Sequence record: OL631257.1
Direction: 5' to 3' (one strand)
From: Escherichia phage ECCR664
Length of the DNA stretch: 64,000 bases
Shown here: in pieces, positions 35,590-50,756 of the stretch
Numbering within the stretch: position 1 is the stretch's first letter
How the letters are laid out: every line of letters starts with the position of its first letter
Notes under the pieces: generated by a model
What the model was told of the DNA's origin: nothing
The model's input: only the letters and a program-made list of their open reading frames with translations
Database searches by the model: none
Made by a program: the position numbers and the translations under genes

Positions 35590-36108
35590 TTAGTAACCAT
35601 TATCCTGACGTTCAAAGTTGTGTTGATTTTTCAAGTAGTAAAGTTTAAAGATTTCTTCTGCTGTAAGACCAAGACCTTGGAACATGTTCAGAACGAAATG
35701 CAGAATATCAATCATTTCAAACTTAATTTCAAGCTGGTCTTCAGGAGACAGTTCATCGATACGACGATTTCGATATTCAGCATGTTGTGCTTTCCATGGC
35801 TTCCATACACTGCTGGCGGCTTTTTCACCATTGCTCATACCACCAAGTGAAGTCAGCAGTTCACGGAATTCATCATCAATATAATCTTTCTGATTACGCA
35901 GCCAATCAACAACATCACCAGCAGTAGCCAATTCATCAGGATGTTTGTTATGTTCAGGCTTGTCATTTGCCAGACGAACCTGTAAAGATTTCTGCATATC
36001 AAGCATTACCTGAAGTGGGTCTTTATCTTCGTGAATCAGAGCATTAAAATAAGCTTCTTCTGCTTTATCAACACCAGAAATAAGTTGTGAACATTCGTTA
36101 AAGTGTGC
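35590..36108 (-). CDS. 56: gp56 dCTPase/dUTPase (MazG-like)
   Basis: Start at MAHFNECSQL...; ...WLRNQKDYIDDEFRELL...EIKFEMIDILHFVLNMFQGLGLTAEEIFKLYYLKNQ, T4 gp56-like. Confidence 0.8.
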   Translation of the reverse strand, partial: AHFNECSQLISGVDKAEEAYFNALIHEDKDPLQVMLDMQKSLQVRLANDKPEHNKHPDELATAGDVVDWLRNQKDYIDDEFRELLTSLGGMSNGEKAASSVWKPWKAQHAEYRNRRIDELSPEDQLEIKFEMIDILHFVLNMFQGLGLTAEEIFKLYYLKNQHNFERQDNGY

Positions 36109-36199
36109 CATTATTTTTCCTTTCAATTCAGTATAAGAGAGTTAATTCTAACATTAATTTTATAAAGCGTAATAAATAATAGGTAACTAAGGAGATATT

Positions 36200-36396
36200 A
36201 TGTTTAAACTTACATCGTTAATCAACGCTATTAAAGGCAATAAAAGAAAACTGCTATCGCCGCAATAGTTGTAGGTGGCATTATTTCATGGAACTTCGGG
36301 ATTGCACCATTGTTAGTTGCCCATGGTATTATAGTTCCTTCTGTTCCATTGGATACTGTAGTTGATTTGGCCTTTGCTATTATAGGACTTGTTTAA
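36200..36396 (+). CDS. Possible small membrane protein on the plus strand (one frameshift in an A-run)
   Basis: RBS taaggagatatt then ATG; MFKLTSLINAIKGNK... then after frame repair ...TAIAAIVVGGIISWNFGIAPLLVAHGIIVPSVPLDTVVDLAFAIIGLV. Confidence 0.3.
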
Positions 36397-37415
36397 ATCT
36401 TCGAATAACGAGATAATCTCATTTTAGCATGCAACCCACTTGAAATATTCTGTTTCATATATTCTAAAATTTCTTGTGGTGTTGCATTTTCTTTCATTAC
36501 CATATCATTCACATCCTTTGATCTCCATGGAGCTCGGTCCCAGAACATAACACGTTCGCCTGCATCAACTAATCGCTTCATGCGAGCTATAGTATCCGGA
36601 TGCCTAGGTTCATTATCCATTACCCATACCCGACGTTCTTTAAATGGTACCACATCTAAATCTATTGAGCCGCCTGTGATAGCGATTGCATTGGGTATGA
36701 ATAAACTATCAATAGGGCCTTCCATTACCCAGACGTCTCCTTCCTTAACACGTTCAACACCATAAATTTTTGTTGCAGACTCAAAAGCTTTAATAGTGAT
36801 ATATTTTTGAGGAGCATCTTTGCGAAGTGCACGTCCTTGGAATGACTCGGCCTTCCCGTCTTTATTAAAAATAGGAATCACTAAACGCGGTTCGGGAATC
36901 TCTTTCTTATACGTACCAGGTTGAATCTTGTTGACCAATTTGGGCCATTCTAATGTGAACCATAATCTATTCCACGATTCTTTAGGAATACACCGAGACT
37001 TAACATATTTCACAATAGGATGCTCTTCAGGCAGCTTGTCCAGACGAGAACAAGACGGCAAAGAATTTATAGTCTTTTTCTCCGGTTCTGGTTTATGTTC
37101 AGGAACCTTTTCAATCTTTGGTTCCATTCTAGCTTTTTCTTTACGAACTTCCATTAGATACTCGCGATAAAGCTCTTCATCATACTCTTTTAAGTATCCG
37201 GAAATTGTATTGTGGTATTGACAGTTATAGCAATGTACATTACCAGGAGTACCGCCATAATACCATCCGCGAGCTTTCATTGCATCTGTCTGAGAGTCGC
37301 CACAAACTGGACAACGAAACGTTAATTTAAATGTGCTTGAATTATTGATTTGTCTAAAACGAGGTAGGTGAGAAAACGCACGATAAGCAAATTCATTATC
37401 TATCCATTCAGCCAT
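36393..37415 (-). CDS. 61: gp61 DNA primase
   Basis: Intact 340-aa ORF; zinc-binding CPVCGDS...CYNC and TOPRIM-like VMEGPIDSLF; T4 gp61-like throughout. Confidence 0.9.
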   Translation of the reverse strand: MAEWIDNEFAYRAFSHLPRFRQINNSSTFKLTFRCPVCGDSQTDAMKARGWYYGGTPGNVHCYNCQYHNTISGYLKEYDEELYREYLMEVRKEKARMEPKIEKVPEHKPEPEKKTINSLPSCSRLDKLPEEHPIVKYVKSRCIPKESWNRLWFTLEWPKLVNKIQPGTYKKEIPEPRLVIPIFNKDGKAESFQGRALRKDAPQKYITIKAFESATKIYGVERVKEGDVWVMEGPIDSLFIPNAIAITGGSIDLDVVPFKERRVWVMDNEPRHPDTIARMKRLVDAGERVMFWDRAPWRSKDVNDMVMKENATPQEILEYMKQNISSGLHAKMRLSRYSKI

Positions 37416-37454
37416 AGTATTCTCCAGAGGCCTTAAATTAATAAGGCCATCATA

Positions 37455-37949
37455 TCACAACTTATTGATATTTACTTTAATTCGCTTTCTTTTCTTGGAA
37501 GGAATTTGTTCTGGACCTTTATTTACGACTGCACCTGTAGTTGTTCCTGATGCAATAGCTTGAGGGCTGCCACCTGAATCACCAGCAACCATATCCTCAA
37601 ATAAAGGGAGTTCTTTAAATATTTCTTTCTGTTGTTCTTCAGTAATGTTATAGCGTGAAGCTACAGCGCTCCAAGCAGACATCATTGAGGCCATTCCATT
37701 AAGACCCGGAACAGTGCTCATCATTCGCTTCATTGAACGAACTGAAGCATGAAAAGGTGTATAAGCCGCTTTCTCTTCAGGAGTGGAAGGACGTTTAAGA
37801 ACACTTCCACGTTCGTCGATTATTTTGGCTTCGTACGCTTTCCATTCTGTAAAAGGTTTTTGCATTAGTCGAATAAACTTATATGCGTAAACAGAATCTA
37901 TTGCAGTGTTAATAATACCCATAGGTACCTCCTGAGTATATTTAATCAA
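37455..37949 (-). CDS. Hypothetical protein (164 aa; 61.1 position)
   Basis: Intact ORF. Confidence 0.4.
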   Translation of the reverse strand: MIKYTQEVPMGIINTAIDSVYAYKFIRLMQKPFTEWKAYEAKIIDERGSVLKRPSTPEEKAAYTPFHASVRSMKRMMSTVPGLNGMASMMSAWSAVASRYNITEEQQKEIFKELPLFEDMVAGDSGGSPQAIASGTTTGAVVNKGPEQIPSKKRKRIKVNINKL

Positions 37950-38139
37950 TCACAAAGATCGCTTTATCACCGTTCGCATCTGTGACTTCATATGTAGTGT
38001 CTTCATAGTGTGGAATATTCCAAATTACACCATCATTAGCTTTTACGCTAATATGGCATTGGTGTTTTGAAACAACTTCATAATCTTCAAAACTTGTAAA
38101 AACACTAATTTTAGAACCAGTGCAAATTGCAGTAGTCAT
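37942..38139 (-). CDS. Hypothetical protein (65 aa)
   Basis: Intact ORF. Confidence 0.35.
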   Translation of the reverse strand: MTTAICTGSKISVFTSFEDYEVVSKHQCHISVKANDGVIWNIPHYEDTTYEVTDANGDKAIFVID

Positions 38140-38247
38140 TTTAACCTCGATTCATAAATGCATTAAATATTTGGTCATCAACAGAAATTTCTAATTCGAC
38201 TTCAATTGCTTCAGCCTTTTCTTCAGGTGGTAATTCGTATCCACACA

Positions 38248-38799
38248 CTACAATTTTTCATCGATATCAAAATATACAGAAGCAATACGATTAATGTTAC
38301 TTTCAGTTAAGTCTAAATCAACATCAACATCTTTTTGACCTACACTTAAAGGATAACTAATACGGGTTATTTTATTATCTTTAACAAAGAGTCCACCAAC
38401 ATACTCTGTACTACGTTTGAAGTTTACACGTTTCCGAATTGAAAGATATGATACATCTTTACCGTGAGCTCGGCTCATAGGACATAATGAATAACTAGAA
38501 TAAGAGATATCAAATCCTACGCCTTCAACATGTGCCAGAGTATCATGAGTAAACCAATTATAGTCGTATGCCAAATCCATTATATTGTAATATGTGAAAG
38601 GCACAGGATTAACATCATATGTTGTACCTTTAAAATCTGCCCAGGCAACGATTTCGTTATCTTTAACAATTACAAAAATTACACCAATATGGTATCCATT
38701 ATTATTTTCATTCGGCGTTATATTATAACATTGTGCATTAGGAAATTTACCATATTTAAACGGCGCGTTTTTGTGCATATAATAAATCATATTATTCAC
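38248..38799 (-). CDS. Hypothetical protein (183 aa; 61.2 position)
   Basis: Intact ORF. Confidence 0.4.
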   Translation of the reverse strand: MNNMIYYMHKNAPFKYGKFPNAQCYNITPNENNNGYHIGVIFVIVKDNEIVAWADFKGTTYDVNPVPFTYYNIMDLAYDYNWFTHDTLAHVEGVGFDISYSSYSLCPMSRAHGKDVSYLSIRKRVNFKRSTEYVGGLFVKDNKITRISYPLSVGQKDVDVDLDLTESNINRIASVYFDIDEKL

Positions 38800-39085
38800 C
38801 TGTGATTTCGGTTACGATATCTTTGTTATCGAAATTAGGGTCACAATACAAAACATAGTTGTACTGCATGATACCGCCAGACTTAAGTTGTTCAACAACT
38901 TTATTAACCATATTAGGACGGTCTCGTTTAGTAATGTTCATGATATCAGCGAAGATTTGATGTTCAACATCTTCTTGATTTGCAGTCATTGACCACTCAC
39001 AGAGGTCTTTATCATAACCTGCCGTAACTGGAGCTGGTGCACACGATACTGCAAGTAAGATTGCTGCCAATGATAACTTTTTCAT
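38792..39085 (-). CDS. sp: Spackle (periplasmic superinfection-exclusion protein)
   Basis: 97-aa ORF with signal peptide MKKLSLAAILLAVSCAPAPVTA and ...GYDKDLCEWSMTANQEDVEHQIFADIMNI...SGGIMQYNYVLYCD, T4 Sp-like. Confidence 0.75.
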   Translation of the reverse strand: MKKLSLAAILLAVSCAPAPVTAGYDKDLCEWSMTANQEDVEHQIFADIMNITKRDRPNMVNKVVEQLKSGGIMQYNYVLYCDPNFDNKDIVTEITGE

Positions 39086-39111
39086 TTTAACTCCTTAGTT
39101 GATTTGATAGG

Positions 39112-39146
39112 ACTACTATACTATAGTCCATCTATAATGTAAACAA
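39112..39146 (-). promoter_or_regulatory. T4-type early promoter upstream of sp
   Basis: Minus strand GTTTAC-18 nt-TATAGT then RBS AGGAG and ATG at 39085. Confidence 0.55.
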
Positions 39147-39148
39147 GT

Positions 39149-39396
39149 TTATTCTTTTTCGCGAATAATAATTACTTGTTGAGGCTGCTGAGCAGATTTC
39201 TTTTCGGCAACGATAGACCAAATTAAAGTTCCAATCCAACCAATCATCGTCCAGTTAAAGAGTAAAGATACAAAGAAGATTGCTGTTGTGCTTTTGTGCC
39301 ACGAATAAGTGCGATTACCCAAGGCAACATGTAAATGATGATTGAACCAATACCTGCGATTAAAACTGCTACTGAACTAGCTACGAATAATTCCAT
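39149..39396 (-). CDS. Small inner-membrane protein (~80 aa, one frameshift)
   Basis: MELFVASSVAVLIAGIGSIIIYMLPWVIALIRGTKAQQQ... and after frame repair ...LLFNWTMIGWIGTLIWSIVAEKKSAQQPQQ. Confidence 0.35.
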
Positions 39397-39457
39397 GTTA
39401 ATTTCCTCTTGATTTGTTATGTTTATAATATCTTGTTTTAACTTTGGCGTAAACCAA

Positions 39458-39826
39458 TTAATTAAATTTGTTTAAACGTTCAACACACTGGACGTAGTTA
39501 TTCGCGATTTGTTTCTGGGTAGGCTCTTTACCAGTTGTTTCAACATAGCGAATGAATGCGATTTCAGTAGCCTGTAAGCAATGTTCTTTAACGCGTTGTT
39601 CTTTTGACAATGCTACAGTATCAGAGTCACGATAACGTTGAGCATGGGCATCAGCTTGAATCATTCGATTACCTACAGTAACCGGGTCTTCTACTTCAAC
39701 TTTAGGTTGGTTGTACTGTTTAACATTCGGGTTATAAATCAATTGACCAACATTATTAGGGATAAAGCCGTGAGCACCACATCCAGTTAATCCGAATACC
39801 ATTGCTAGAGCGATTAATTTTTTCAT
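39458..39826 (-). CDS. Predicted lipoprotein (122 aa)
   Basis: Signal peptide MKKLIALAMVFGLTGC with lipobox L-T-G-C. Confidence 0.5.
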   Translation of the reverse strand: MKKLIALAMVFGLTGCGAHGFIPNNVGQLIYNPNVKQYNQPKVEVEDPVTVGNRMIQADAHAQRYRDSDTVALSKEQRVKEHCLQATEIAFIRYVETTGKEPTQKQIANNYVQCVERLNKFN

Positions 39827-39886
39827 TTCAATTTCCTCTGTAGTTGATAAAAAGATAGTAACACAGTATGTGGTGCTTGTAAACAG

Positions 39887-40099
39887 CTATTTTAAACTTT
39901 TGCGAAATTTGCGTTTTTCTTGACGAATCTGACGTTTAGTCGGACGTACAGCAAATTTAACGAAGTCCACTTTGCCGTGAGGAAACTTTTCAGATGCTTC
40001 ACAGTCCATCATTAGTTCCCATCCTTCCAGAATAAGAGCTTTCCATTGTGTAGTTGATGCAAATTCGTATGTTGATGGTTTAAACACAGTTGAGTACAT
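39887..40099 (-). CDS. Hypothetical basic protein (~70 aa)
   Basis: ORF 39887-40138, start set at MYSTVFKPSTYEF. Confidence 0.3.
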   Translation of the reverse strand: MYSTVFKPSTYEFASTTQWKALILEGWELMMDCEASEKFPHGKVDFVKFAVRPTKRQIRQEKRKFRKSLK

Positions 40100-40100
40100 A

Positions 40101-40292
40101 TTATCCTCTGAAATCAGCTTCAAAAACTTTCTCGTCATTAATAAATGCTTTAACTAATGCATTGTTCACTTCAGCAAGTTGTACCGCAACCCACTCGATT
40201 TCTTCACGATCACCTGATAACATGATATCTTTAGTGAACATCTCGCCGCTTTTAAACCAGCCAATAAAAGTAACTTTAGTTAATTTGCCCAT
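40101..40292 (-). CDS. Hypothetical small protein (~63 aa); dmd is expected in this interval but cannot be assigned
   Basis: ORF 40101-40313, start set at MGKLTKVTFIGWFK. Confidence 0.3.
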   Translation of the reverse strand: MGKLTKVTFIGWFKSGEMFTKDIMLSGDREEIEWVAVQLAEVNNALVKAFINDEKVFEADFRG

Positions 40293-40596
40293 ATTTCCTC
40301 GCAAAATGCCCATTCAGCGTGATAAACTGTAGCACCTTTAGTATCATTCATTTGAACTACGTCTACCGGAGAAATTACTCGATAGAGACGTGGTTCACCT
40401 CCATAAGAGCGTGCTGCTCGTCCTGCATAAATCTTTGCTAAACCGATATCTTCAGTAAAGAATACACGATTCAAGTTTTTCTTACGTCCAATTTCAGACA
40501 GAACTCCTGTTTCTTCAGGAGGACAAAGCATATTTTCGATGTTAGCTGAACTACTTGAACCATGATAAAAATCTTAAATTCTGCTTTACAATCGAT
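40280..40596 (-). CDS. Hypothetical protein (~105 aa, one frameshift) with YHG(S) motif
   Basis: MKTIDCKAEFKIF..YHGSSSSANIE then ORF 40280-40531; preceded by early promoter at about 40620-40660. Confidence 0.3.
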
Positions 40597-40660
40597 GGTT
40601 TTCATTTTGTTCTCCAGTAGTTGATAGGTCTATAATAACACAACTACTGGAGAAGTAAAC

Positions 40661-41068
40661 TTAAAAATGTAATTTAGATATATCTGCGTTGATTTCGTTT
40701 TGGTTTGCGTCGTATGCAATTAAACGAACCGCTTTAGATGGGTCATTCAATGCATAGAAATGATGGAACATTGCTCGAACGATATCGCCATTTACAAGTT
40801 CTACCTGGATAGGAGAACCTTTTTCGAGTTGGAAATGTTCATAAGCTTTGATGGTTCGCAGATAATCAAGTTTTTGATTTCCGGCTCCAACAATTTGTAC
40901 GATACGTTTGCCCATGTTTTCCATACGAGATACAATAGTTTTAGGAGCAAGAATAACGTAGGTTGCCAGCGGAGAAACTACTTCAACAGTTGTGTTTTCG
41001 GTGATTGCAGTAAAATTGCTTGAGACATATTCATAATGTTTTCCTCTTGGTTGGTGTAAGTACATCAT
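40661..41068 (-). CDS. Hypothetical protein (135 aa)
   Basis: Intact ORF directly downstream of gene 41. Confidence 0.4.
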   Translation of the reverse strand: MMYLHQPRGKHYEYVSSNFTAITENTTVEVVSPLATYVILAPKTIVSRMENMGKRIVQIVGAGNQKLDYLRTIKAYEHFQLEKGSPIQVELVNGDIVRAMFHHFYALNDPSKAVRLIAYDANQNEINADISKLHF

Positions 41069-41090
41069 ATCATGCCTAGAGGAAGATGTA

Positions 41091-41106
41091 AACCCCGAAA
41101 GGAGAC
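41091..41106 (-). terminator. UUCG-tetraloop hairpin downstream of gene 41
   Basis: ggagac-cgaa-gtctcc; minus strand reads GGAGAC-UUCG-GUCUCC with a weak U tract. Confidence 0.45.
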
Positions 41107-41121
41107 CGAAGTCTCCTTTTA

Positions 41122-42562
41122 TTAAAATTTTAACTCATTGGCTAAGCTATCTAGGTCAGCACGTGTTGCTTTGGCTTTACCTACGCGTTCCGTACGATTC
41201 ACCTCTGCCTGACGCATCTGAGCACCTGCGTTTTCATTTACTGTGTTAGGTGTGTTCATGCCTTCTTGCTCAATCTCAACCCATTTCTGATTGCCTTTAC
41301 GTACACCCATCAAGAACTTGTTCCACTTATTCTTATCACCATATCGTGATTTGATTTGTTTGATAAGTTGTTGTTCAGCTTGTGCAAGTTCTTCAGTTTC
41401 AATTACAGCCAACATGAAATCTGCCGTTGCTGGTAAACCTGCTGATTCTGCAATATCGCTCATGTTCATGTCTGAAGCATCCCATGCTGCACGTCCTACT
41501 TGAGCTGCAGTCCATAGAACTGTTTCAGATTCTACTGCTAATGCACGAAGTTCTTCTGCGATAGCTTTAACTAATGTGTAACTATTTTCAGTGTAAACTC
41601 TGATACGACAAGACCCACAAATACCTAAGTAATCGACTATAATTACAGACGGCACAAAGTTCTTCTTGAGTTTCAATTCATTAAGCAATGCACGGAATGT
41701 ATTAGCATTAGCTCCGCCAGTAGGATACTGTTTGACTACTAAACGTCCTAATGTGGATTTTGAACGCCATTTTTCCATCTTGGCTTTATATTCAGCATAA
41801 GATACGTTACCATCATCGATATCATCAAGTGATACGTCAAGCATGTTTGCATCTATACGCTTAGCACAAACTTCTTCAGCCATTTCCATGGAAATATAAA
41901 GAACATTATGTCCTGTTTGAAGATAATCTGCAGCAAGTGAACAAAGGCCTAAAGATTTACCAACGTTAACACCTGCCATTAAAACATTCAGTGTACCGGT
42001 TTCAGCACCACCTTTGGTGATTTTATTCAGAATGTTTAATTTGAACGGGACCTTACGTGCTTTATTTAGATAAGAAAGCCAGCGTGCTTCATAGTCTTCC
42101 ATCCAGTCATGACCAACATAACTATCAAACGAAATTGAAAGTGCTTGACGCATAATATCAGGAATAGCTCCTACGTCAGGCATTTTCTTGTTACGTTGTT
42201 CTGGAGGTAGTTCAGCATTAGACTGAATCTCAATGATTTTGGATGTAGCATTATACATCGCTTTTGCTGGACATATTTCTCAGTTTCTTTAACCAACCAT
42301 TCGTGGTCTTCAGGAGTGTCAGCCAATTTTTCAATTAGGTCTGAAGTTCCTTTATATTCGGCTTCAGTTAAAGAACTGTTATCTAAAGCCACCTTTAATG
42401 CATTGATAGATGGCATTGCATTATATTCGTTAACGTGGCTCTTTATAATTTTAAAGACATTTTTGCCGGTCCACGCTCAAAATACTCAGAATCCATATAA
42501 GGCCAGACCTTAGAAAAATAAGCCTGGTCGTATACGAGATGAGACAAAATAATTTCTACCAC
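41122..42562 (-). CDS. 41: gp41 replicative DNA helicase (DnaB-like; frameshifted near N-terminus)
   Basis: N-terminal VVEIILSHLVYDQAYFSKVWPYMDSEYFE.GPAK; 378-aa fragment with Walker A GVNVGKS and ...IIVDYLGICGSCRIRVY...; ends ...DSLANELKF as in T4. Confidence 0.85.
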
Positions 42563-42911
42563 GATAACTCCTTAAAAGAATTTAAATTTTTCTTGGTTCG
42601 TTCATTAAAAGCTTGTTGTACCTGCATTGTAACACATTTTTCAACATGTGGTGCAAGTTCTGCTTTTCTGTCCTGGTCAAGAACTGCAAAGTCCATTACG
42701 ATTTTACCATCAACCCAGTCTAGTTTTGTAATATAGACTATATGATGGGAACCGTCTTCAAGTGTAATCAGAATCTCTTGAATGACATTTTCCATTGCTG
42801 AACGGATAATTTTAAGAGATTCATTAAACACTCGTTCTTTGCGAATGTCTTCCCTTCCGAAGAAGGGGATTCATCAACGATTTCTAGATTTAAATCATCG
42901 AGATTATTCAT
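42556..42911 (-). CDS. 40: gp40 head vertex assembly chaperone (one frameshift)
   Basis: Starts MNNLDDLNLEIVDESPSSEGKTFAKNE then continues as ORF 42556-42831; position between uvsX and 41. Confidence 0.55.
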
Positions 42912-44074
42912 CGAAATCTTCCATTTCGTCAAGGTCGTTTTCAATATCTGCTGCAGACGGAGCATCAGAAGCTTTAACCGGAACTTTAGTTGTTGCTTTG
43001 CAATTAATAAGGTCGTTAACAGCGTCATCAACTTCTTTAATAGAAGAGATAGCACCTAGTTTATATTTAGTTTCAATTGCATCTCGGAAAGGTTTGTGTT
43101 TAAACAACGGCCCCCAGAATTCTACGCAATCAGTAGCTTTAGCACGCCATGATTTCTCTTCACGAATCATTTCACCTGTTTCTTCGTCAAGGAATTCACG
43201 AGCATACCAACCAGCTTTAGGTTTAACCACAAAACCAATTTCAGTTGCCATTTCTAACAAGCCACTGAATGGGTCAATACCGCCATCAAAATTAACCGTG
43301 ATTGGGAAAGTAGATTTCTCTTTAACTGTACGAGATTTTTCTGCTTTCAACGTGAAGTCATAACCGGTCAATTCTGTACCTTCTTTAACCTGACGTTTAG
43401 AGATAAAAATACTGTGTTAGCAGAATAAAGAATACCTGTACCACCGCCCATAATCTCTTTAGGATATAGTCCGCCGATTTCCATTGCTGTATGGTTGATT
43501 GCAACACATGGAATATCTTTAATAGTCAGATACGGGGTTACAATACGGAAAAGAGATTTAAGTGCCTTAGCACGAGACATATCACCTACGACTTTCTCGT
43601 TCAATGCATCTTCGGTTTCTTTCTTAGATGCAGTGTTACCGATTGAATCGATAAAGATAATAACTTTATCACCGCGTTCAATCGCGTCAAGCTGATTAGT
43701 CATATCAACTTTAAGTTGTTCGACGGACTGAATTGGTGTATGAACTACACGGTCTAAATCAACACCCATTGAACGGAAGTAAGATTCTGAAGCACCGAAT
43801 TCTGAGTCATAGAACAAACAGATTGCATCTTTATATTTCTTCATATACGCTGCAACCATAGTTAGTCCAAACAATGTTTTAAAATGTTTAGAAGGTGCAG
43901 CAAAATAGTCAAGCCTGATTGCAATCCTGCATTCAGAGCACCACCTAGTGCAATATTCAACATCGGAATACGAGTAGGGACTTCATCACGATTATTAAAC
44001 AGCTTAGACTTAGTCAAGTCTGCAGTCATTTTAGAAGTAGAAGCTTTAATCAGACGAGATTTTAAATCAGACAT
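42904..44074 (-). CDS. uvsX: UvsX recombinase (RecA-like; two frameshifts)
   Basis: Three consecutive fragments (43862-44074, 43368-43874, 42904-43371) giving ~390 codons; acidic C-terminus DLDEMEDFDE. Confidence 0.85.
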
Positions 44075-44173
44075 TGTATTTTTCCATAGGCATCATTATA
44101 TTTTACTCATGTTTAAAAGATAAGATGATTATATACTAAGAGTTATACAGCATTTAAAACTTTAAACAGGCTC

Positions 44174-44722
44174 TTAACGAGCCCATTTGATAATTTCTGT
44201 AATCAAATTATTACGTTCGCTTGCATTAAATCCTATAACTTTGTTAGCACCATCATGATTAAGTAATTGATACGTTTGGATTTTGTTATGAATTGCAAAC
44301 TCTTCAAAATGTGAAATGACTGTATTAAAACCGAATGAAGACAAAGTAATAAGATCGTCTTCAAAACTTTCAGTCATTTCGTTACGTGTTAAAATAATTG
44401 TGAACACATCATGGTTTTGGCAAAGACGAATATAATCCTGTTCATAAACGTCAAGAACCGAGTCCGCATCTTGTCGAATACGTCCATAAACCCAGTTACT
44501 AATATATCCACGGTCTAACAGATAAATCTTAGTAGGGTCTAAATAATTCAACATCGTTTCGAAACAGCCAACTTCATTTCGAGACTTAACATCGAAACGT
44601 CCATCAACTGTTCGTTTAGGGAAATCAATCTTTACATATCTTTCACTAATTTCCATTATGTCATTAATGAAAGTTGTTTTACCAGCATTATCCGGTCCGT
44701 CTACTAAAATAATTTTAGCCAT
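44174..44722 (-). CDS. P-loop nucleotide kinase (thymidylate-kinase-like)
   Basis: Walker A VDGPDNAGKTT at N-terminus and LLDRGYISNWVYG (DR motif); occupies the site of beta-gt in T4. Confidence 0.55.
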   Translation of the reverse strand: MAKIILVDGPDNAGKTTFINDIMEISERYVKIDFPKRTVDGRFDVKSRNEVGCFETMLNYLDPTKIYLLDRGYISNWVYGRIRQDADSVLDVYEQDYIRLCQNHDVFTIILTRNEMTESFEDDLITLSSFGFNTVISHFEEFAIHNKIQTYQLLNHDGANKVIGFNASERNNLITEIIKWAR

Positions 44723-44723
44723 T

Positions 44724-45623
44724 TTATTCCTCGATTACGACATCTTCGTATTTAGGTATATTATACGGTGAAGAAATTAAAGCATTAAAGTAGATGAACT
44801 CACCAAGACCTGGATGGAATACTTCTTCAGGATTTTCGAAATATTGAATCTTCGGACGTCCTTTAAGAATTTGATAGTACTCAGTTTTAGTTGGATTAAA
44901 AATTCGAATCAGCGCTTCTTCGGGATACTTATTTCTGTCGAAACTATTATTTGGATCAGTTATATAAAGCGGTTGACCTAATTGAATTGCGCATTCAACC
45001 ACTTGTTCAAAACGATAGCATGGGTCACTAATTCGAAATGGATGAAAAATACCATCTAGATGAATAGGAGCCAAATCACCTACAAGACGCTGCATGACGG
45101 AAGGACGTATAACTTTCTGCGTTACGATAATCTTATTACCATCTGCACCTGCGTTAACCAGCACTTCTTTTTGACGTTCATTCAACACAGTAGTTTGAAG
45201 TGAACGATTAACCGACAACATATCGGTTTTTAAGAATTCGTCAATATAAAAACGTGGTTTATTAGGGTCTGCAGTGATATTGAAATTGAATTCCACATCA
45301 AAAGCGCCGTCATATCCGGTGATATCTGTGATTAGAAAATCACAATCATAATAAGCAATTAATGAATCAACCACAAATTCATTTTCAGACCAGAAATATT
45401 TACGAGTGTTATACGCGTTATCTTTATACCATAATGGAACAAACTTAAATTCTGGGAAAAGACGTTCACATTCTTTAATATCGGATGCATTACGTGGATA
45501 TGTAATCACATCACCTGGATTAGCACGGTGCAAATGAAGTTGGAAGTTGCCATCCTTAAGGATAGCATACTGTCCAGTTTCATAAGACCGCATACTCAAG
45601 ATTGGTACGCGGAAAATAGCCAT
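44724..45623 (-). CDS. Hypothetical protein (299 aa) in the gene-42 operon
   Basis: Intact ORF, tightly packed between the kinase and gene 42 (1-nt spacers/overlaps); no motif recognised. Confidence 0.4.
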   Translation of the reverse strand: MAIFRVPILSMRSYETGQYAILKDGNFQLHLHRANPGDVITYPRNASDIKECERLFPEFKFVPLWYKDNAYNTRKYFWSENEFVVDSLIAYYDCDFLITDITGYDGAFDVEFNFNITADPNKPRFYIDEFLKTDMLSVNRSLQTTVLNERQKEVLVNAGADGNKIIVTQKVIRPSVMQRLVGDLAPIHLDGIFHPFRISDPCYRFEQVVECAIQLGQPLYITDPNNSFDRNKYPEEALIRIFNPTKTEYYQILKGRPKIQYFENPEEVFHPGLGEFIYFNALISSPYNIPKYEDVVIEE

Positions 45624-46339
45624 TAGTCAAGGAATCCTTTAACATAATCAAAATCACGTTCAAACACATGGGCACTTACCATGGTATGAGTATAATCACC
45701 AACTTCTACACCACATTCGTTAGCGATATAATGAAGTAATTTTCCTTGGAGATAAAAATCCAACTGCATAACAACAGCACAGTTCTGAGAACGCATATGA
45801 CAGTGGGTATAAAGCTTACCATCACGAATATAATAAGTCACTGAGTCAGTACATGGATATTCAAGTGTTTCGTCCGAATCAAGCAAAGCCTGATCAGAAC
45901 TTTCTAGAATTTGGAACACAACTCTTCGAGAGTTAGGTTTCTCTTTAAGTTCTTTTAGAAGAGCTGGTAATTGGGCCACAATGCGAGGACCGTAGAAAGT
46001 GTTGAAGTTCGCCGGCAAAACATCTGATTTTGGTTTAGAAATAAATTTAGCGACATTAGGATATGCCTTAAACGCTTCTTCTGCGTTGGTACCACCAGAA
46101 ATCATAAACTTCCAGAAGTCTTCGGCATATTCATAAGAGATGCGGTTAATACGTGGGTCGGTCATTTTGAATGATGATGGAGTGTCAACAACTACTGTCA
46201 TGGACCCGATTTCATTACAACGTCCAATACGAGAATCAGTTACGAATTCGGGGTTTTCTAAAATTTCACGATTGACTGCTTTAAATGCGGCTTGAAAATC
46301 TGCGGCTTTGATATATTTCATTGTGTTATGTTTTCCCAT
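45623..46339 (-). CDS. 42: gp42 dCMP hydroxymethylase (thymidylate-synthase family)
   Basis: ...YPCTDSVTYYIRDGKLYTHCHMRSQNCAVVMQLDFYLQ... aligns with the T4 gp42 active-site region (CT..V.Y.IRD......MRS.D). Confidence 0.7.
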   Translation of the reverse strand: MGKHNTMKYIKAADFQAAFKAVNREILENPEFVTDSRIGRCNEIGSMTVVVDTPSSFKMTDPRINRISYEYAEDFWKFMISGGTNAEEAFKAYPNVAKFISKPKSDVLPANFNTFYGPRIVAQLPALLKELKEKPNSRRVVFQILESSDQALLDSDETLEYPCTDSVTYYIRDGKLYTHCHMRSQNCAVVMQLDFYLQGKLLHYIANECGVEVGDYTHTMVSAHVFERDFDYVKGFLD

Positions 46340-46621
46340 GTTTACCTCAATACAATTTATTATATACTCAATTCGTAAAGCTTATTTGAATTTCTTGGCA
46401 ATGTTGATATAACGTAAAGCTTCAGAATCTATACTTCCAAGAACACTATGAAGGAATGCATCAGTGTAGTATTCCAATTGAACAGGTTCTTTAATCACTT
46501 TAGCCGCTTTGGTTTCAAACAGGCCCATAAGGGCCTTTTAAGAATTTGTTCGTTAGTGTTCAGTTTTATAGTCAAAATCTCTTCATTAAGTTTATAATTA
46601 AAAGTTTTTCTAGAAATCATT

Positions 46622-47774
46622 CCGGGTACCTCAAAGCGTCATCAGAGTTAGTTATATCAATAATAGATATAGAGTTTTCTGATAACCCATTTTTAGATAA
46701 CTGACGTTTATAATATCTTTCACAATATGTACACGTCGTCCCGCAGATTTCATTAGCACAATCGAAATCTGGATGTCTGAACCACCTTTTTCTAAAAAGC
46801 CATCTAACAAAGAGGTTTCAATATTTACTGTATGTGAAAACTCAGTCTCATTTTCAAGAGTGAAAATAGTCTCTAAAGGCTTCCACAGTTCTAACAAATT
46901 ACCTTCAAACTTTTCAGAAGCGTATGCTTCAAGAACTTTCAAAATGTAGTCGGTGCTACCTGTACGTCCTGAAACTTTGAATTGAGTGATACCAATATCA
47001 TTATAAAGTTTCAAATCTTGAGGACGAACAAAACGAGTTCTCAACCAGTTAAATGGGTCTGTATCACGAGCTTTAATACAGTGCTGCATAGGATATCCGT
47101 TTAAGGATTTAGCATCATCAGCTGTAACATCAGTACTATGGAAAATATAGCAAGAGTCACGATAGCTACAATGTGTTGTATACCCTTTACCAGCATTAGA
47201 ACAGAACTCATTTACAAGAACTTCAAATATTATATTGTTCTTATTGCAAAACTCTGCTGCACGCTTCAGGAAAGAAACTGAACGGTTCTTATGAATTCCG
47301 CAGCAGACTTTTTTGATGTTATATTGGTCGTGCAAGTATTTGATTTGAGTTACAGCATCAACATGTAGAATTGTTGAAACTTCAATCTCAATGTCTTTAT
47401 TGACTTCACGAACAATTTCCATAACAACAGGGTTAGCGATAGTAATACGCCATACGCCTATTGACCAAAGATACTGAACATAATCCTGAATAGCTTTCTT
47501 CTTCCACTCAACTAGTTCTCTTTTGAACCAGGATTTATCGTGTTGAGTGTATAGTTAAAGCAAATACCTAATTCGTTACAACGTTTAACGTAGTCTTCTA
47601 ACATCTTTTGTCAACGTCAGGAAGCCTAAAATCAGGTCTGGCTGCTACAAAAGCCATTTCTCTTGTAGAACCATATACTTCGTTTATCAAGCTATTAGGA
47701 TAGGTTTTATTGAGCTCTACGATTTTATCAAGAAGAGCTAAATCAAAATTCGTTCCGATTTTAAAAGTATTCAT
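46622..47774 (-). CDS. Hypothetical protein (~380 aa, at least two frame breaks); Cys-rich C-terminal segment
   Basis: N-terminal MNTFKIGTNFDLALLDKIVELNK...; 256-aa fragment 46652-47422; an alternative frame near the 3' end encodes ...FDCANEICGTTCTYCERYYK (CxxxCxxC). Confidence 0.35.
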
Positions 47775-47828
47775 TTTTGCATCTCGCGTTAATTGATGCG
47801 ATGGTTTTTGCAGGTCTTACTTAAATTA

Positions 47829-48230
47829 TTATAGATTCGGTTTATACGATTTAAATGTTTCGAATTCGCCTTTATTCATAAGAGCTTTGAATTCGTCAGG
47901 ACGCATAGCTTTGTCGTCGATAATCCAATCATATACTGGTTTATGTGTTAGCAAATTATGGTACTTCAAACCAATGTTTTCCAAGTTCTGAATCAGACTT
48001 GGGAGAATGTCAATTGCTATACGACCAGGACCTACCGACTTCATACCACGAGCCGTGTAAAGCGTTATGGTATGCCCTGCATCATACAGGGCATTAATGG
48101 CGGACACCATTTCGACGTCTGGTTTGAAGTTCACGTAATCACGATTGTTATTCCACTCTGTTATACAATCATCGACATCAAAACAAAGATTAAGCATGTT
48201 TTCTACACGGTGCATTAGATTCGTTCCCAT
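47829..48230 (-). CDS. HAD-superfamily phosphatase
   Basis: Motif I LCFDVDDCIT, motif II ...TLYTARG, motif IV WIIDDK; true start probably the internal Met MLNLCFDVDD. Confidence 0.55.
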   Translation of the reverse strand: MGTNLMHRVENMLNLCFDVDDCITEWNNNRDYVNFKPDVEMVSAINALYDAGHTITLYTARGMKSVGPGRIAIDILPSLIQNLENIGLKYHNLLTHKPVYDWIIDDKAMRPDEFKALMNKGEFETFKSYKPNL

Positions 48231-48285
48231 TGATGAGTGATATCGCCACCGATTGGACGATAGGAAACACCAGTTTCTTTATCAG

Positions 48286-49104
48286 TTAGTACCCATTTAC
48301 CAGGATTTTTGTAATCAGAGTAGCCGTTACAGGTTCTGCTACGTCATAACTAATAGAGCCGTCCTGAAGTACACGGCCCATGTTACGTAATTGCTTAGTC
48401 AGAAGTTCCATGCCTTTATAATATGCGGCTACCGCTTTAAGTGGATTATTCTTGAAATAACCACCTAATGCAATCCAGATAATTGCTACTGCCAAATGAT
48501 GATACTCGTTAAACGAACTCATCTTTCCATATTTGTAAACTAGTGGATTGATGTTAATAGTCACATTACAAGTTGTTTCATCAATAATAAACTGGCCCCA
48601 GGTCGGATTAGCGTTGAATTCATCATAACCTGAAACAGCATAAAGCACTTTAGCTTCATCATACAATTTTGGCCCGTAAATCTTGGTTTCACCAAAATAT
48701 CCACGAGGGTCGATAAACTTGACTTCGCCGTTATCAGTAATCATGGTATTACTGAAGTTCGGGTCACCGTGAATAACAGAGTACTGTCCCTGAGAACGGT
48801 TATGATAACGAATAAGGTGTTCTAAAGCTTGTTTCAACATTGGCTTCAGACGTCCAATCTTAGTGTAGTTCACACGTGTGATTTTACCAAATGAATCAAT
48901 CAATGGTTGAATGCTTTCACAACGATCAATAACTTTCGTATAGAATTCTTTAGTGAAATCACGACGAACAGTTTCAGGACTTACAAAATAAGCGTCTGTG
49001 CTGAATTTCAGTGCATCTAAAATTGCATCAACAATTTGTGGACGAGCAAGACTTGATTTGGATTTAATATATTCAAATGCTGGCTTACCTTTAATACGTT
49101 CCAT
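48286..49104 (-). CDS. Kinase of the aminoglycoside-phosphotransferase / choline-kinase fold (putative sugar kinase)
   Basis: Brenner-type catalytic motif VIHGDPNFSNTMI followed by KFIDPRGYFGE. Confidence 0.55.
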   Translation of the reverse strand: MERIKGKPAFEYIKSKSSLARPQIVDAILDALKFSTDAYFVSPETVRRDFTKEFYTKVIDRCESIQPLIDSFGKITRVNYTKIGRLKPMLKQALEHLIRYHNRSQGQYSVIHGDPNFSNTMITDNGEVKFIDPRGYFGETKIYGPKLYDEAKVLYAVSGYDEFNANPTWGQFIIDETTCNVTININPLVYKYGKMSSFNEYHHLAVAIIWIALGGYFKNNPLKAVAAYYKGMELLTKQLRNMGRVLQDGSISYDVAEPVTATLITKILVNGY

Positions 49105-49130
49105 AATAAAGTGGCCGCCAGGATGATAAC

Positions 49131-49900
49131 TTACAATCCGTGGAACTGAATCTGATTTAACTTTCTTATACCAATTGACTTCATCTTTTGAAGTGCAACG
49201 CCCTGTTCTGTTAAAGCAATCTTTGTTACCGTTTCTTCGCCAATTTCAACTGCATTAAAACTACGATTAAGTTCACGAACTTCATGAGCTTTTTCAAGTT
49301 TAGGCATATCACCAAGGTCGATGATATTCATAAGCTCTGATTTATTGAATGCGCCGCTGTAAAGGAATTCTACAAAATCACGTCCTTTGCAGTATTCGTG
49401 AATTTCCTCATCAGTAGAACCCATGTAGAATTCCCAGTCTTTGAACTGATAAATTCCTACAACATTACCGCCTGTTGAACCTACGTTAGTGATATTTTCA
49501 CCATCGAAATTATATCGACATTCATCACCTTTAACATAGATTGCGTTAACATTCCAAGACCATGAACCAAAATCAGGAATAATATCACACCAGTTAACAA
49601 CTACGTTATGGCCGTCTAAATCTTTATGTAATTTAGCAAGAGCATAAGCAGAACCATACGCTTCATCAACTGTACGAATAGTCACATTGAACCCTTCTTG
49701 CTCACAATAAGCTCGAACGGTTTCAGCAAATTTTGAATGAACTACTACAATAATTTCATCTGCGCCAAGGTCAGAATAAATTGTGTACAAATTGCTCAGA
49801 ATAGTGTCTTGTTTATAGTTCACAAGAACTTTTGGAATATGGTGAGTAATTGGATATAAACGAGTTGCCAATCCAGCACCAAGAATAACAGCTTTTTCAT
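49131..49900 (-). CDS. Sugar-phosphate nucleotidyltransferase (frameshifted near N-terminus)
   Basis: After frame repair N-terminus reads MKKAVILGAGLATRLYPIT, the G-x-G-T-R-L-x-P-x-T nucleotidyltransferase signature; 246-aa fragment 49131-49871. Confidence 0.6.
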
Positions 49901-49941
49901 GTTGAAGTCCTCATTGGTAAGTAGGTGTATTGTACACTATT

Positions 49942-50085
49942 CTAGTTAAAGCATTCATACTTTGCCTGTAGACCAATCATAATCCATCCAATTACAAGTG
50001 TTGGAATCATTACTGGAGCCGTTAAGCTCCAGTAGATAGTCATGACAAGCATCAATAGTAAAAGTCCTATTGTTATTGCTTTCAT
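49942..50085 (-). CDS. Small membrane protein (47 aa), position of T4 imm
   Basis: MKAITIGLLLLMLVMTIYWSLTAPVMIPTLVIGWIMIGLQAKYECFN; ATGA overlap with the SIS gene stop. Confidence 0.35.
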   Translation of the reverse strand: MKAITIGLLLLMLVMTIYWSLTAPVMIPTLVIGWIMIGLQAKYECFN

Positions 50086-50716
50086 TGTTCGCCTCGTAAC
50101 ATGGCACCTAGTGCACCGCCAGGGTGGAACTTAAGGAAGTCATTAGAGGTAAATCCACGTTCAGACGAAAGGTTGATAGCGAACGTATCGATAAGCGCTA
50201 ACAACAATGTAGTGGACATTGTCGGAGCTAAAGAGTTCTCGTCGACTTCCACCGCGATACCGGTACAGAACGTATAATCAAAAGAGCTTCGTATTCTTGC
50301 GGAATGTCAGGGTTACAATGTAACAGAATCTGTTTAACCTGAGGACGAATCATACGAAGATGTTTAGCAACACCTATCATTTCTTCAGTCTTACCAGAAC
50401 GACTAATATGAATCAACACATCATTAGGCGCAATGAATCCTGCATCACCGTGAGAATAATGCCCGGTGTTCAAGTACATACTCGGGATACCGAGTGAAGC
50501 AAATGTCTCAGAAGCTTTAGTTGCGATATTAGCGTTCTTACCAACACCTGTAATAATTACACGACTTTCATAATTACTCAGTCCAGGGCGTCGAAGAGTT
50601 TCTAGAATAGCATTATAACGAGCAGGGTTTTGACTAATTACTTTAGCCATGGTGGCAAGAGATGAAGCTTGTTTTACGATTGCGTCAATAGCGATAGTGA
50701 TTGGTGTAGTTTTCAT
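50082..50716 (-). CDS. SIS-domain sugar-phosphate isomerase (KdsD/GutQ-like; one frameshift)
   Basis: ...ITGVGKNANIATKASETFASLGIPSMYLN...VLIHISRSGKTEEM and, after frame repair, C-terminal ...FHPGGALGAML. Confidence 0.6.
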
Positions 50717-50756
50717 ATTTCTCTCATTTAATTAGTTGGCCGTCCTTGGCATTATA

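Follow-up and report, generated by a model that had tools for sequence, protein, structure and literature searches.

Gene content of the locus

By the window we mean the whole stretch of 64,000 nucleotides that was analysed. According to its ORF list, all three ORFs discussed here are carried on the minus strand (Table 1). The window shares 97-98% DNA identity with RB69-group phages (Mosigvirus), and the RB69 annotation (NC_004928) has sp (RB69p035), imm (RB69p036) and imm.1 (RB69p037) with matching order and strand. Pfam and PHROG matches were obtained for Imm.1, Imm and Sp, and searches of NCBIfam and PADLOC gave no match for any of the three. It is near certain that these genes already carry an annotation, as sp, imm and imm.1 in an RB69-like T-even phage, which would make the cluster a known anti-superinfection set. 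The initial annotation had located the cluster downstream of gene 41. All three ORFs were recovered where they had been placed, but they do not follow gene 41 immediately, being separated from it by four ORFs (the RB69ORF041c and RB69ORF040c homologues, dmd and 61.4).

The window has 16 copies of the T4 early-type promoter motif where 1.3 would be expected, and 15 of the 16 sites are on the minus strand. The promoter-like site upstream of sp matches 10 of the 12 sigma-70 positions. Based on these scans, imm.1, imm and sp are each predicted to lie behind an early-type promoter of their own. The locus is best explained as a set of three early genes for envelope proteins (imm.1, imm and sp) in a T-even phage of the RB69-like (Mosigvirus) type, and we give this reading a probability of roughly 0.85.

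Table 1. Features of the imm.1-imm-sp locus, with positions in the window.
Feature	Position	Strand	Description and basis
sp (gene 61.3), Spackle	38792..39085	-	97 aa; Pfam T4_Spackle, phrog_1586 and PDB matches
Promoter-like site 5' of sp	39115..39143	-	TTTACA-17-TATAGT (full -35 = GTTTACA); sigma-70 scan, consensus match only
imm	39149..39396	-	Superinfection immunity inner-membrane protein, 82 aa when intact; Pfam Imm_superinfect, phrog_1039, RB69 annotation
imm ORF pieces	39244-39396 and 39149-39322	-	Frame broken by 1-nt deletion
Deletion site in imm	39288..39296 (~39292)		1-nt homopolymer deletion; alignment to RB69
Early-type promoter motif 5' of imm	39425..39454	-	GTTTAC-N18-TATTAT; T4 motif scan
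imm.1	39458..39826	-	Predicted lipoprotein, 122 aa; DUF5481, phrog_1754, RB69 imm.1 at matching position
Early-type promoter motif 5' of imm.1	39855..39884	-	GTTTAC-N18-TACTAT; T4 motif scan

Spackle and Imm

A Spackle protein with a signal peptide had been proposed for this locus, and our searches bear this out. Sp matches Pfam T4_Spackle (PF25676) over its full length, covering 1-96 of 96 profile positions (9e-43, 145.2 bits, cut-off 27), as well as phrog_1586, "spackle periplasmic" (1.9e-42), and the PDB chain 6x6o (6.7e-40), while the 75-aa chain of 7cn6 aligns to residues 23-97. The N-terminus is hydrophobic at residues 4-21, which fits a signal peptide of ~22 aa that leaves a remainder of 75 aa. 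Cys29 and Cys81 are present in the window protein and in those of RB69 and the T4-type phage RB14, and the identity to RB14 Sp is 66% overall and 72% in the mature part. T4 Sp is exported with removal of a signal peptide of about 22 aa, and the mature protein, a 75-aa disulfide-bonded helical protein of the periplasm, binds the tail-tip lysozyme (gp5) of incoming phages and inhibits it (PMC7677548). By orthology, the Sp of the window would be expected to inhibit gp5 lysozyme as well.

The small polytopic membrane protein described in the initial annotation is Imm. It is indeed small with two hydrophobic segments, but in the window it is not encoded by one intact ORF. A 1-nt deletion close to 39292 interrupts the frame; the plus strand has a run of four T there and RB69 has five. 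When one base is put back, the product is identical to RB69 Imm at all but 1 residue and matches Pfam Imm_superinfect (PF14373) at 1.1e-16 (60.8 bits, cut-off 27.9). Without repair, the two pieces match the N- and C-terminal parts of Imm_superinfect and of phrog_1039, "immunity to superinfection", with Imm_superinfect scores of 36.8 bits for the C-terminal piece and 16.5 for the N-terminal one. Kyte-Doolittle windows within residues 3-31 of the repaired Imm score 2.3-2.5, and a second apolar stretch, seen by eye in the sequence and unscored, lies at about residues 38-63.

Read as given, the window has a frameshift that splits imm, and imm might be a genuine pseudogene in a phage that relies on Sp, and perhaps Imm.1, alone. 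We consider this most improbable. Compared with RB69 over 17 kb, the one-base changes consist of 36 deletions and only 6 insertions, and 22 of the deletions are in homopolymers of at least 4 bases. Such homopolymer deletions occur at about two per kb in the window and break gene 40 and 61.2, as well as the essential gene 41, which is broken twice. Imm also has 154 Mosigvirus-level records matching at 95% identity or more, and the nine among the matches listed are all full-length and in one piece. Because the same kind of deletion breaks the essential gene 41, we read the split of imm as almost certainly a sequencing or assembly error and not a pseudogene.

In T4, superinfection exclusion is associated with Imm, a small membrane protein, and Imm and Sp stop translocation of the superinfecting genome without affecting secondary adsorption (PMC6832632). 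The suggestion of a superinfection-exclusion module at this locus is thus well founded, as Imm and Sp, both classical T-even exclusion proteins, are encoded side by side, each with a predicted early-type promoter.

Imm.1 is a predicted lipoprotein

The third protein, Imm.1, begins with MKKLIALAMVFGLTGC and differs from RB69 Imm.1 by one residue. It matches Pfam DUF5481 (38.3 bits, cut-off 27) and phrog_1754 (2.4e-29). The lipobox was called by a PROSITE-style pattern, i.e., a positively charged n-region and a hydrophobic h-region with [LVI][ASTVI][GAS]C within the first ~35 residues, combined with conservation across the family. Imm.1 has the n-region MKK, the h-region LIALAMVFG and the lipobox LTG/C16 with Gly at +2. 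A lipobox is found in 32 of 35 family representatives, with Asp at +2 in none of them, and the form L-[TSAV]-G-C is kept at the same position in these 32 even though they come from very divergent subfamilies. One exception is an N-terminally truncated fragment. This agrees with the initial prediction of a lipoprotein with an LTGC lipobox.

It is also conceivable that Imm.1 is not lipidated but is a soluble periplasmic or signal-peptide-anchored protein in which LTGC is incidental. Two family members (P0002 and P0004) have an SPase-I-type signal with AHA-type cleavage sites and no lipobox Cys, which means that lipid anchoring is not obligatory in the family. The simple lipobox pattern also matches Sp, which is treated in the literature as an SPase-I substrate (PMC7677548), and a pattern match alone is therefore weak evidence. 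Retention of L-[TSAV]-G-C in nearly all representatives argues against an incidental motif, and we regard a non-lipidated Imm.1 as improbable.

Cys83 and Cys114 in the C-terminal domain of Imm.1 are invariant or near-invariant across the family, and a second Cys pair is gained or lost as a pair. When P0006 is set aside, whose signal peptide contains an additional Cys, the number of cysteines after the lipid Cys is even in all but one of the lipobox-bearing members. The AF2 models of Imm.1 consist of a disordered tether of ~30 residues followed by a three-helix C-terminal domain, at low to moderate confidence (pLDDT 62-64). Comparison of the predicted structure with known folds returned no informative neighbours, and a PDB sequence search with Imm.1 gave no match.

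Relatives of Imm.1 were difficult to collect. In a word-indexed search, no more than 3-4 proteins were obtained before a diverse alignment served as query. A narrow Imm.1 profile, run with HMMER against the full set of 1.84 billion representatives, gave 8 matches, all from the same phage family. NCBIfam yielded only two weak, sub-threshold matches for the Imm.1 relatives from other genera. A profile-profile comparison of the hhalign type between DUF5481-type and other-genus lipoproteins, with signal peptides removed, aligned a 16-residue N-terminal motif only (73% probability). The unity of the family thus rests on the full-length phrog_1754 matches and not on hhalign.

Two other assignments of Imm.1 were rejected. 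A role as o-spanin or in lysis does not fit with the early-type promoter motif on the gene, and T4 has separate spanin genes. The label "iduronate sulfatase", given to Imm.1 in some GenBank records, is not compatible with a protein of 122 aa with no sulfatase domain.

Imm.1 in T4-type phages

The initial annotation regarded the lipoprotein as lying outside the T4 gene set, which turned out to be incorrect. The gene is imm.1, its RB69 annotation notes similarity to a T4 protein, and it is found in T4-type phages with the same GLTGC. By tblastn, Imm.1 matched 502 further records with ~34% identity over 97% of its length (E ~1e-12), and the matches listed are T4-type (Tequatrovirus) phages, namely RB14, T2 and a T4 derivative. 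RB14 Imm.1 begins with MKIAILVIALGLTGC and matches DUF5481 at 5.4e-72.

The position of the genes differs between the two groups. In RB14 the order is 43, imm.1 (ORF45), imm (ORF44), 42.1 and 42, and the sp locus reads 61.2, sp, 61.4, dmd and 41, with the imm genes absent there. In RB69 the interval between 43 and 42 holds sugar-modification genes and an ORF whose annotation notes similarity to the T4 42-imm intercistronic region. The imm.1-imm pair is located between sp and 61.4 in Mosigvirus and between genes 43 and 42 in T4-type phages; its position beside sp in Mosigvirus brings all three genes into one block. The identities between RB69 and RB14 are 33% for Imm.1, 64% for Imm, 66% for Sp and 85% for gp41.

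Linkage to imm and possible role of Imm.1

Match counts for Imm.1 and Imm are identical, with 154 in Mosigvirus and 502 in the next identity band, in which the matches listed are of the Tequatrovirus type. Across about six genera, a phrog_1754 family gene lies next to imm in 10 of the 11 contexts that we covered; in the remaining one, no imm adjoins the lipoprotein gene. The two genes are adjacent, or at most two genes apart, and occur in both orders in Moonvirus, Gaprivervirus, Dhakavirus, a Klebsiella T4-like phage and metagenomic contigs. Little or no space may separate the gene from imm (7 nt in RB14, and an overlap of 4 nt in context L015), which suggests co-expression.

Based on this linkage, we tentatively propose Imm.1 as a partner of Imm. 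More specifically, it is possible, if doubtful, that Imm.1 is an outer-membrane-tethered periplasmic partner that positions or aids Imm where the incoming tail tube meets the inner membrane. Imm.1 would be made early and lipidated at Cys16, and its flexible tether of ~30 residues would hold a small three-helix domain, stabilised by a disulfide, in the periplasm. Working with Imm at that site, it would target the tail tip or the DNA conduit of phages that adsorb secondarily, or alternatively help resist the envelope damage they cause. If this is true, the choice of related phages that are excluded would depend in part on the fast divergence of Imm.1, which is 33% identical between RB69 and T4 types where Imm and Sp reach 64-66%.

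A different explanation, with a real chance of being right though at below even odds, is that Imm.1 is an exported envelope protein unrelated to Imm or exclusion, e.g., an anti-defence protein or a host-envelope modulator, and that the linkage reflects co-inheritance in a small early transcription unit. Nearby early genes do have other functions, such as AdfA (anti-DarT) and the Dmd antitoxin, and the single context in which imm is not adjacent points in the same direction. Imm-family proteins also occur in many non-Tevenvirinae phages, and Imm.1 was not detected there. Plasmid-borne imm alone reportedly confers immunity, a finding credited to Lu and Henning in 1989 and 1994, and in classical genetics imm and sp alone account for exclusion. 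However, Imm.1 and Imm have stayed together in the other 10 contexts despite inversion of their order and relocation of the pair, and the close junctions suggest that the two are co-expressed. In the literature searched, we found no experiment tying Imm.1 to exclusion; imm.1 was mentioned in passing only (PMC5885020), and DUF5481 was not mentioned.

Collectively, our results correct the view that the lipoprotein does not belong to T4 and identify the split imm as, almost certainly, a sequencing artefact, but otherwise mostly re-identify annotated genes. The module is a known one, and a partner role of Imm.1 may reasonably be suggested. We know of no explanation of the mechanism by which Imm blocks DNA entry, and a conserved lipoprotein co-inherited with imm in about six T-even genera is a candidate partner for explaining it.

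Comparison with known systems

The initial annotation had suggested, as one option, receptor masking by a lipoprotein foreign to T4. Such a protein would be comparable to the T5 Llp and Cor lipoproteins and would block adsorption of related phages. Imm.1 does resemble these in being small and early and in its predicted placement on the periplasmic side of the outer membrane. Like Llp, it probably has an intramolecular disulfide (PMC9586334), and its rapid divergence between phage genera would also fit. Still, we consider a masking role very unlikely. Imm.1 is a T4 gene product, DUF5481 is the only Pfam family it matches, and neither Pfam nor fold comparison detected similarity to Llp/Cor lipoproteins in sequence or fold. 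Unlike llp and cor, imm.1 lies beside imm, sp and 61.4 and not beside a receptor-binding-protein gene, and T-even exclusion acts after adsorption, leaving secondary adsorption unblocked (PMC6832632).

Compared with T4 Spackle (gp61.3; PDB 6x6o, 6xc0 and 7cn6), the Sp of the window is an orthologue that keeps both cysteines of the mature protein, and nothing notable differs. RB69 has the same three genes at a DNA identity of ~97%, and the window differs from it by the 1-nt homopolymer deletion in imm, one among many and read as a sequencing error. The T4-type imm.1-imm operon of RB14 has homologous Imm and Imm.1 proteins, the same order of imm.1 followed by imm, and the same GLTGC lipobox. However, the gap between imm.1 and imm is 7 nt in RB14, whereas the window has 61-nt spacers with separate promoter motifs. 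The N-terminal G-x-V-V-x4-V-G-K motif and the first Cys pair are both missing from RB69-type Imm.1.

For the role proposed here, Ltp of the Streptococcus thermophilus phage TP-J34 offers a working analogy. Ltp is a prophage-encoded, helical, membrane-tethered lipoprotein of a Gram-positive host that blocks DNA injection, proposedly by stopping genome entry after adsorption, and homology to Imm.1 is not expected. By this analogy, Imm.1 may likewise be a tethered helical lipoprotein that would stop genome entry after adsorption.

Results

The reading frames within 38792-39826 of the window belong to three genes, all on the minus strand. RB69-group phages (Mosigvirus, Tevenvirinae) are 97-98% identical across a 2.4-kb stretch around these genes, with 154 records spanning at least 80% of it. 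In the RB69 reference, the matching genes are annotated as imm.1 (RB69p037), imm (RB69p036) and sp (RB69p035), with 61.4 and dmd to one side of the set and 61.2 to the other. The 97-aa protein is Spackle, as proposed in the initial annotation (Pfam T4_Spackle, 9e-43; phrog_1586; PDB 6x6o and 7cn6). The small membrane protein described there is encoded between the flanking genes and is Imm, but not as a single ORF: of two short ORFs, one matches the N-terminal and the other the C-terminal half of Pfam Imm_superinfect and phrog_1039 ("immunity to superinfection"). The lipoprotein, Imm.1, matches DUF5481 (38.3 bits, cut-off 27) and phrog_1754. All three are annotated members of known families in the arrangement of the RB69 reference genome, and the finding is therefore already known.

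Features of the imm.1-imm-sp region (window coordinates)
Feature	Position	Strand	Description
Early-type promoter motif	39855-39884		Upstream of imm.1
imm.1	39458-39826	-	122 aa, starts MKKLIALAMVFGLTGC
Early-type promoter motif	39425-39454		Upstream of imm
imm	39244-39396 and 39149-39322	-	Two overlapping short ORFs
Variant promoter motif	39115-39143		Close variant of the early-type motif, precedes sp
sp	38792-39085	-	Spackle, 97 aa
61.2	38141-38799	-	Adjoins sp; AdfA, anti-DarT factor (Pfam PF23813, 1.1e-101)
dmd	40101-40313

AdfA and dmd place the three genes within an early anti-defence/host-interaction gene block. In GenBank, imm.1 is labelled "iduronate sulfatase" in NC_041919 (HP3) and NC_055741 (IME339), and this label is also found among the features beneath the imm.1 match in HX01 (NC_018855). 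The label is a spurious one that has been propagated; the protein has 122-126 aa and no sulfatase domain.

Exclusion functions need early expression. The window contains 16 copies of the T4 early-type promoter motif (GTTTAC-N16-19-TAnnAT) where 1.3 are expected, 15 of them on the minus strand, and a GAGG-type ribosome-binding site can be read at each of imm.1, imm and sp. Further minus-strand motifs are found at, for example, 1995, 12568, 15077, 27702, 40632 and 41064. Motif density marks the window as a putative, densely promoted early region.

Alignment to RB69 shows that imm lacks one base at ~39292, in a run of five T. With the base restored, Imm is 82 aa long, has a single residue change from its RB69 counterpart and reaches 60.8 bits with the Pfam model. 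In a 17-kb alignment with RB69, one-base deletions in the window (36) outnumber one-base insertions (6), and homopolymers of four or more bases hold 22 of the 36 deletions. The essential gene 41 is broken by one-base deletions at 42262 and 42460, and gene 40 and 61.2/AdfA (frameshift at 38254) are likewise interrupted. Imm is found at ≥95% identity in all 154 Mosigvirus-level records, and is full-length and in one piece in 9/9 among the matches listed. Given the deletion bias, the broken gene 41 and the uninterrupted Imm of relatives, the imm frameshift is best explained by an error of sequencing or assembly, of the kind typical for unpolished long reads, and not by a pseudogene. Across 35700-52100, one-base indels relative to RB69 run at about two per kb and are mainly deletions in A/T homopolymers (e.g., 36242, 38254, 39292, 40567, 41012, 42262, 42460 and 42587-42852); they hit gene 41 twice, as well as 40, 61.2/AdfA, imm and a number of small ORFs. 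ORF calls throughout this region should be treated as error-prone.

The N-terminus of Imm.1 consists of MKK, a hydrophobic core and LTG followed by C16, with Gly at +2. The previously noted LTGC lipobox is thus present, and it is kept at the same position in 32 of 35 cluster representatives of the family, none with Asp at +2. The exceptions are one N-terminally truncated fragment and two representatives (P0002 and P0004) with an AHA-type SPase-I site. By the E. coli +2 rule for lipoprotein sorting, Gly at +2 and the lack of Asp in the family predict an outer-membrane destination, in the inner leaflet. Cys83 and Cys114 show no or almost no variation, and two further Cys residues occur either together or not at all, depending on the subfamily, a pattern which fits disulfides formed in the periplasm. 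Two agreeing AlphaFold2 runs give ~47 disordered residues (signal peptide and tether) followed by three helices (48-67, 75-98 and 104-120), with pLDDT ~85-90 in the C-terminal hairpin and only 62-64 overall. Right after the lipid Cys, the family alignment (A6) contains a motif, C-x3-5-G-[DEP]-[VI]-V-x4-[VI]-G-[KQ], common to T4-type, Moonvirus, Dhakavirus, Gaprivervirus and Klebsiella-phage proteins. This motif is deleted in the RB69-type Imm.1 of the window and missing from the two non-lipidated variants.

A tblastn search with the 122-aa Imm.1 gave 154 records at ≥95% identity and 502 more at ~34% identity across 97% of its length (E ~1e-12). The matches listed in the latter band are from T4-type phages, among them RB14, T2 and a T4 derivative. 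In RB14, an annotated imm.1 directly precedes imm, from which it is separated by 7 nt (gene order 43, imm.1, imm, 42.1, 42), and its product starts MKIAILVIALGLTGC, with the same lipobox as in the window. The initial annotation thus wrongly places the lipoprotein outside the T4 gene set.

The RB14 stretch 61.2, sp, 61.4, dmd, 41 contains no imm genes, while in RB69 and the window imm and imm.1 separate sp from 61.4. The 43-42 interval of RB69 instead holds sugar-modification genes, along with a small ORF whose annotation points to similarity with the T4 42-imm intercistronic region. Judged by gene order, the imm.1-imm pair was thus moved or displaced as a unit. The Mosigvirus location sets both classical exclusion genes, imm and sp, side by side. 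In some lineages (loci L014, 1-2845, and L017, 2001-4498), SIS (arabinose-5-phosphate isomerase-like) and nucleotidyl-transferase genes come after the phrog_1754 lipoprotein gene; they are sugar-modification genes of the type seen in the RB69 interval (L007, 7424-8199). This arrangement hints that acquisition of a DNA-modification cluster displaced the pair.

Discussion

The main argument for a functional connection between Imm.1 and Imm is their linkage. Match counts of the two proteins are equal in both of the best-sampled bands of identity (154 and 502 records). The lipoprotein gene is directly upstream of imm in Merlin (Moonvirus) and the T4-like Klebsiella phage Roth76, directly downstream in AnYang (Dhakavirus), two genes downstream in SP18 and P896 (Gaprivervirus), and adjacent in four metagenomic contigs. 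One contig (L014) has it after gene 43 without an adjacent imm. Linkage is thus seen in 10 of the 11 contexts examined, whichever gene comes first, and at two loci. Each of these cultured-phage lipoproteins matches phrog_1754 full-length (E 2e-15 to 4e-52). Pfam DUF5481 picks up T4-type, RB69-type and closely related metagenomic forms only, with no match for the lipoproteins of the other genera, and hhalign of the mature sequences aligns a short N-terminal motif alone.

T4 Imm and Sp stop translocation of the secondary phage genome while leaving adsorption unblocked, and each has a part in resistance to lysis from without (PMC6832632). T4 Spackle is exported and processed to a 75-aa, disulfide-containing form, and it inhibits the gp5 tail lysozyme (PMC7677548). 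Residues 1-22 of Sp are treated as a cleaved periplasmic signal (PMC7677548). Sp residues 12-15 also satisfy a simple lipobox pattern (AVSC in the window and RB69, LSSC in RB14, L013 3987-4280), and the conserved Cys15 may be either incidental or an alternative processing site.

We propose that Imm.1 could be an outer-membrane-tethered periplasmic helical domain acting together with Imm, a tentative reading to which we give a probability of roughly 0.3-0.35. Within the block, Imm.1 has diverged most between RB69 and RB14 (33% identity, compared to 64% for Imm, 66% for Sp and 85% for gp41), which fits a component interacting with variable partners. The main rival, which we consider about equally likely, is that the envelope function of Imm.1 is an unrelated one and that the gene is simply co-inherited with imm. 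The literature searched mentions Imm.1 only in passing, as a gene differing between the T4 and RB69 groups (PMC5885020). What is left is one modest, testable hypothesis on Imm.1. Receptor masking, also suggested in the initial annotation, would make Imm.1 a counterpart of T5 Llp (PMC9586334), but this is unlikely, as Imm.1 has no similarity to Llp, its gene lies in a different neighbourhood, and T-even exclusion comes after adsorption.
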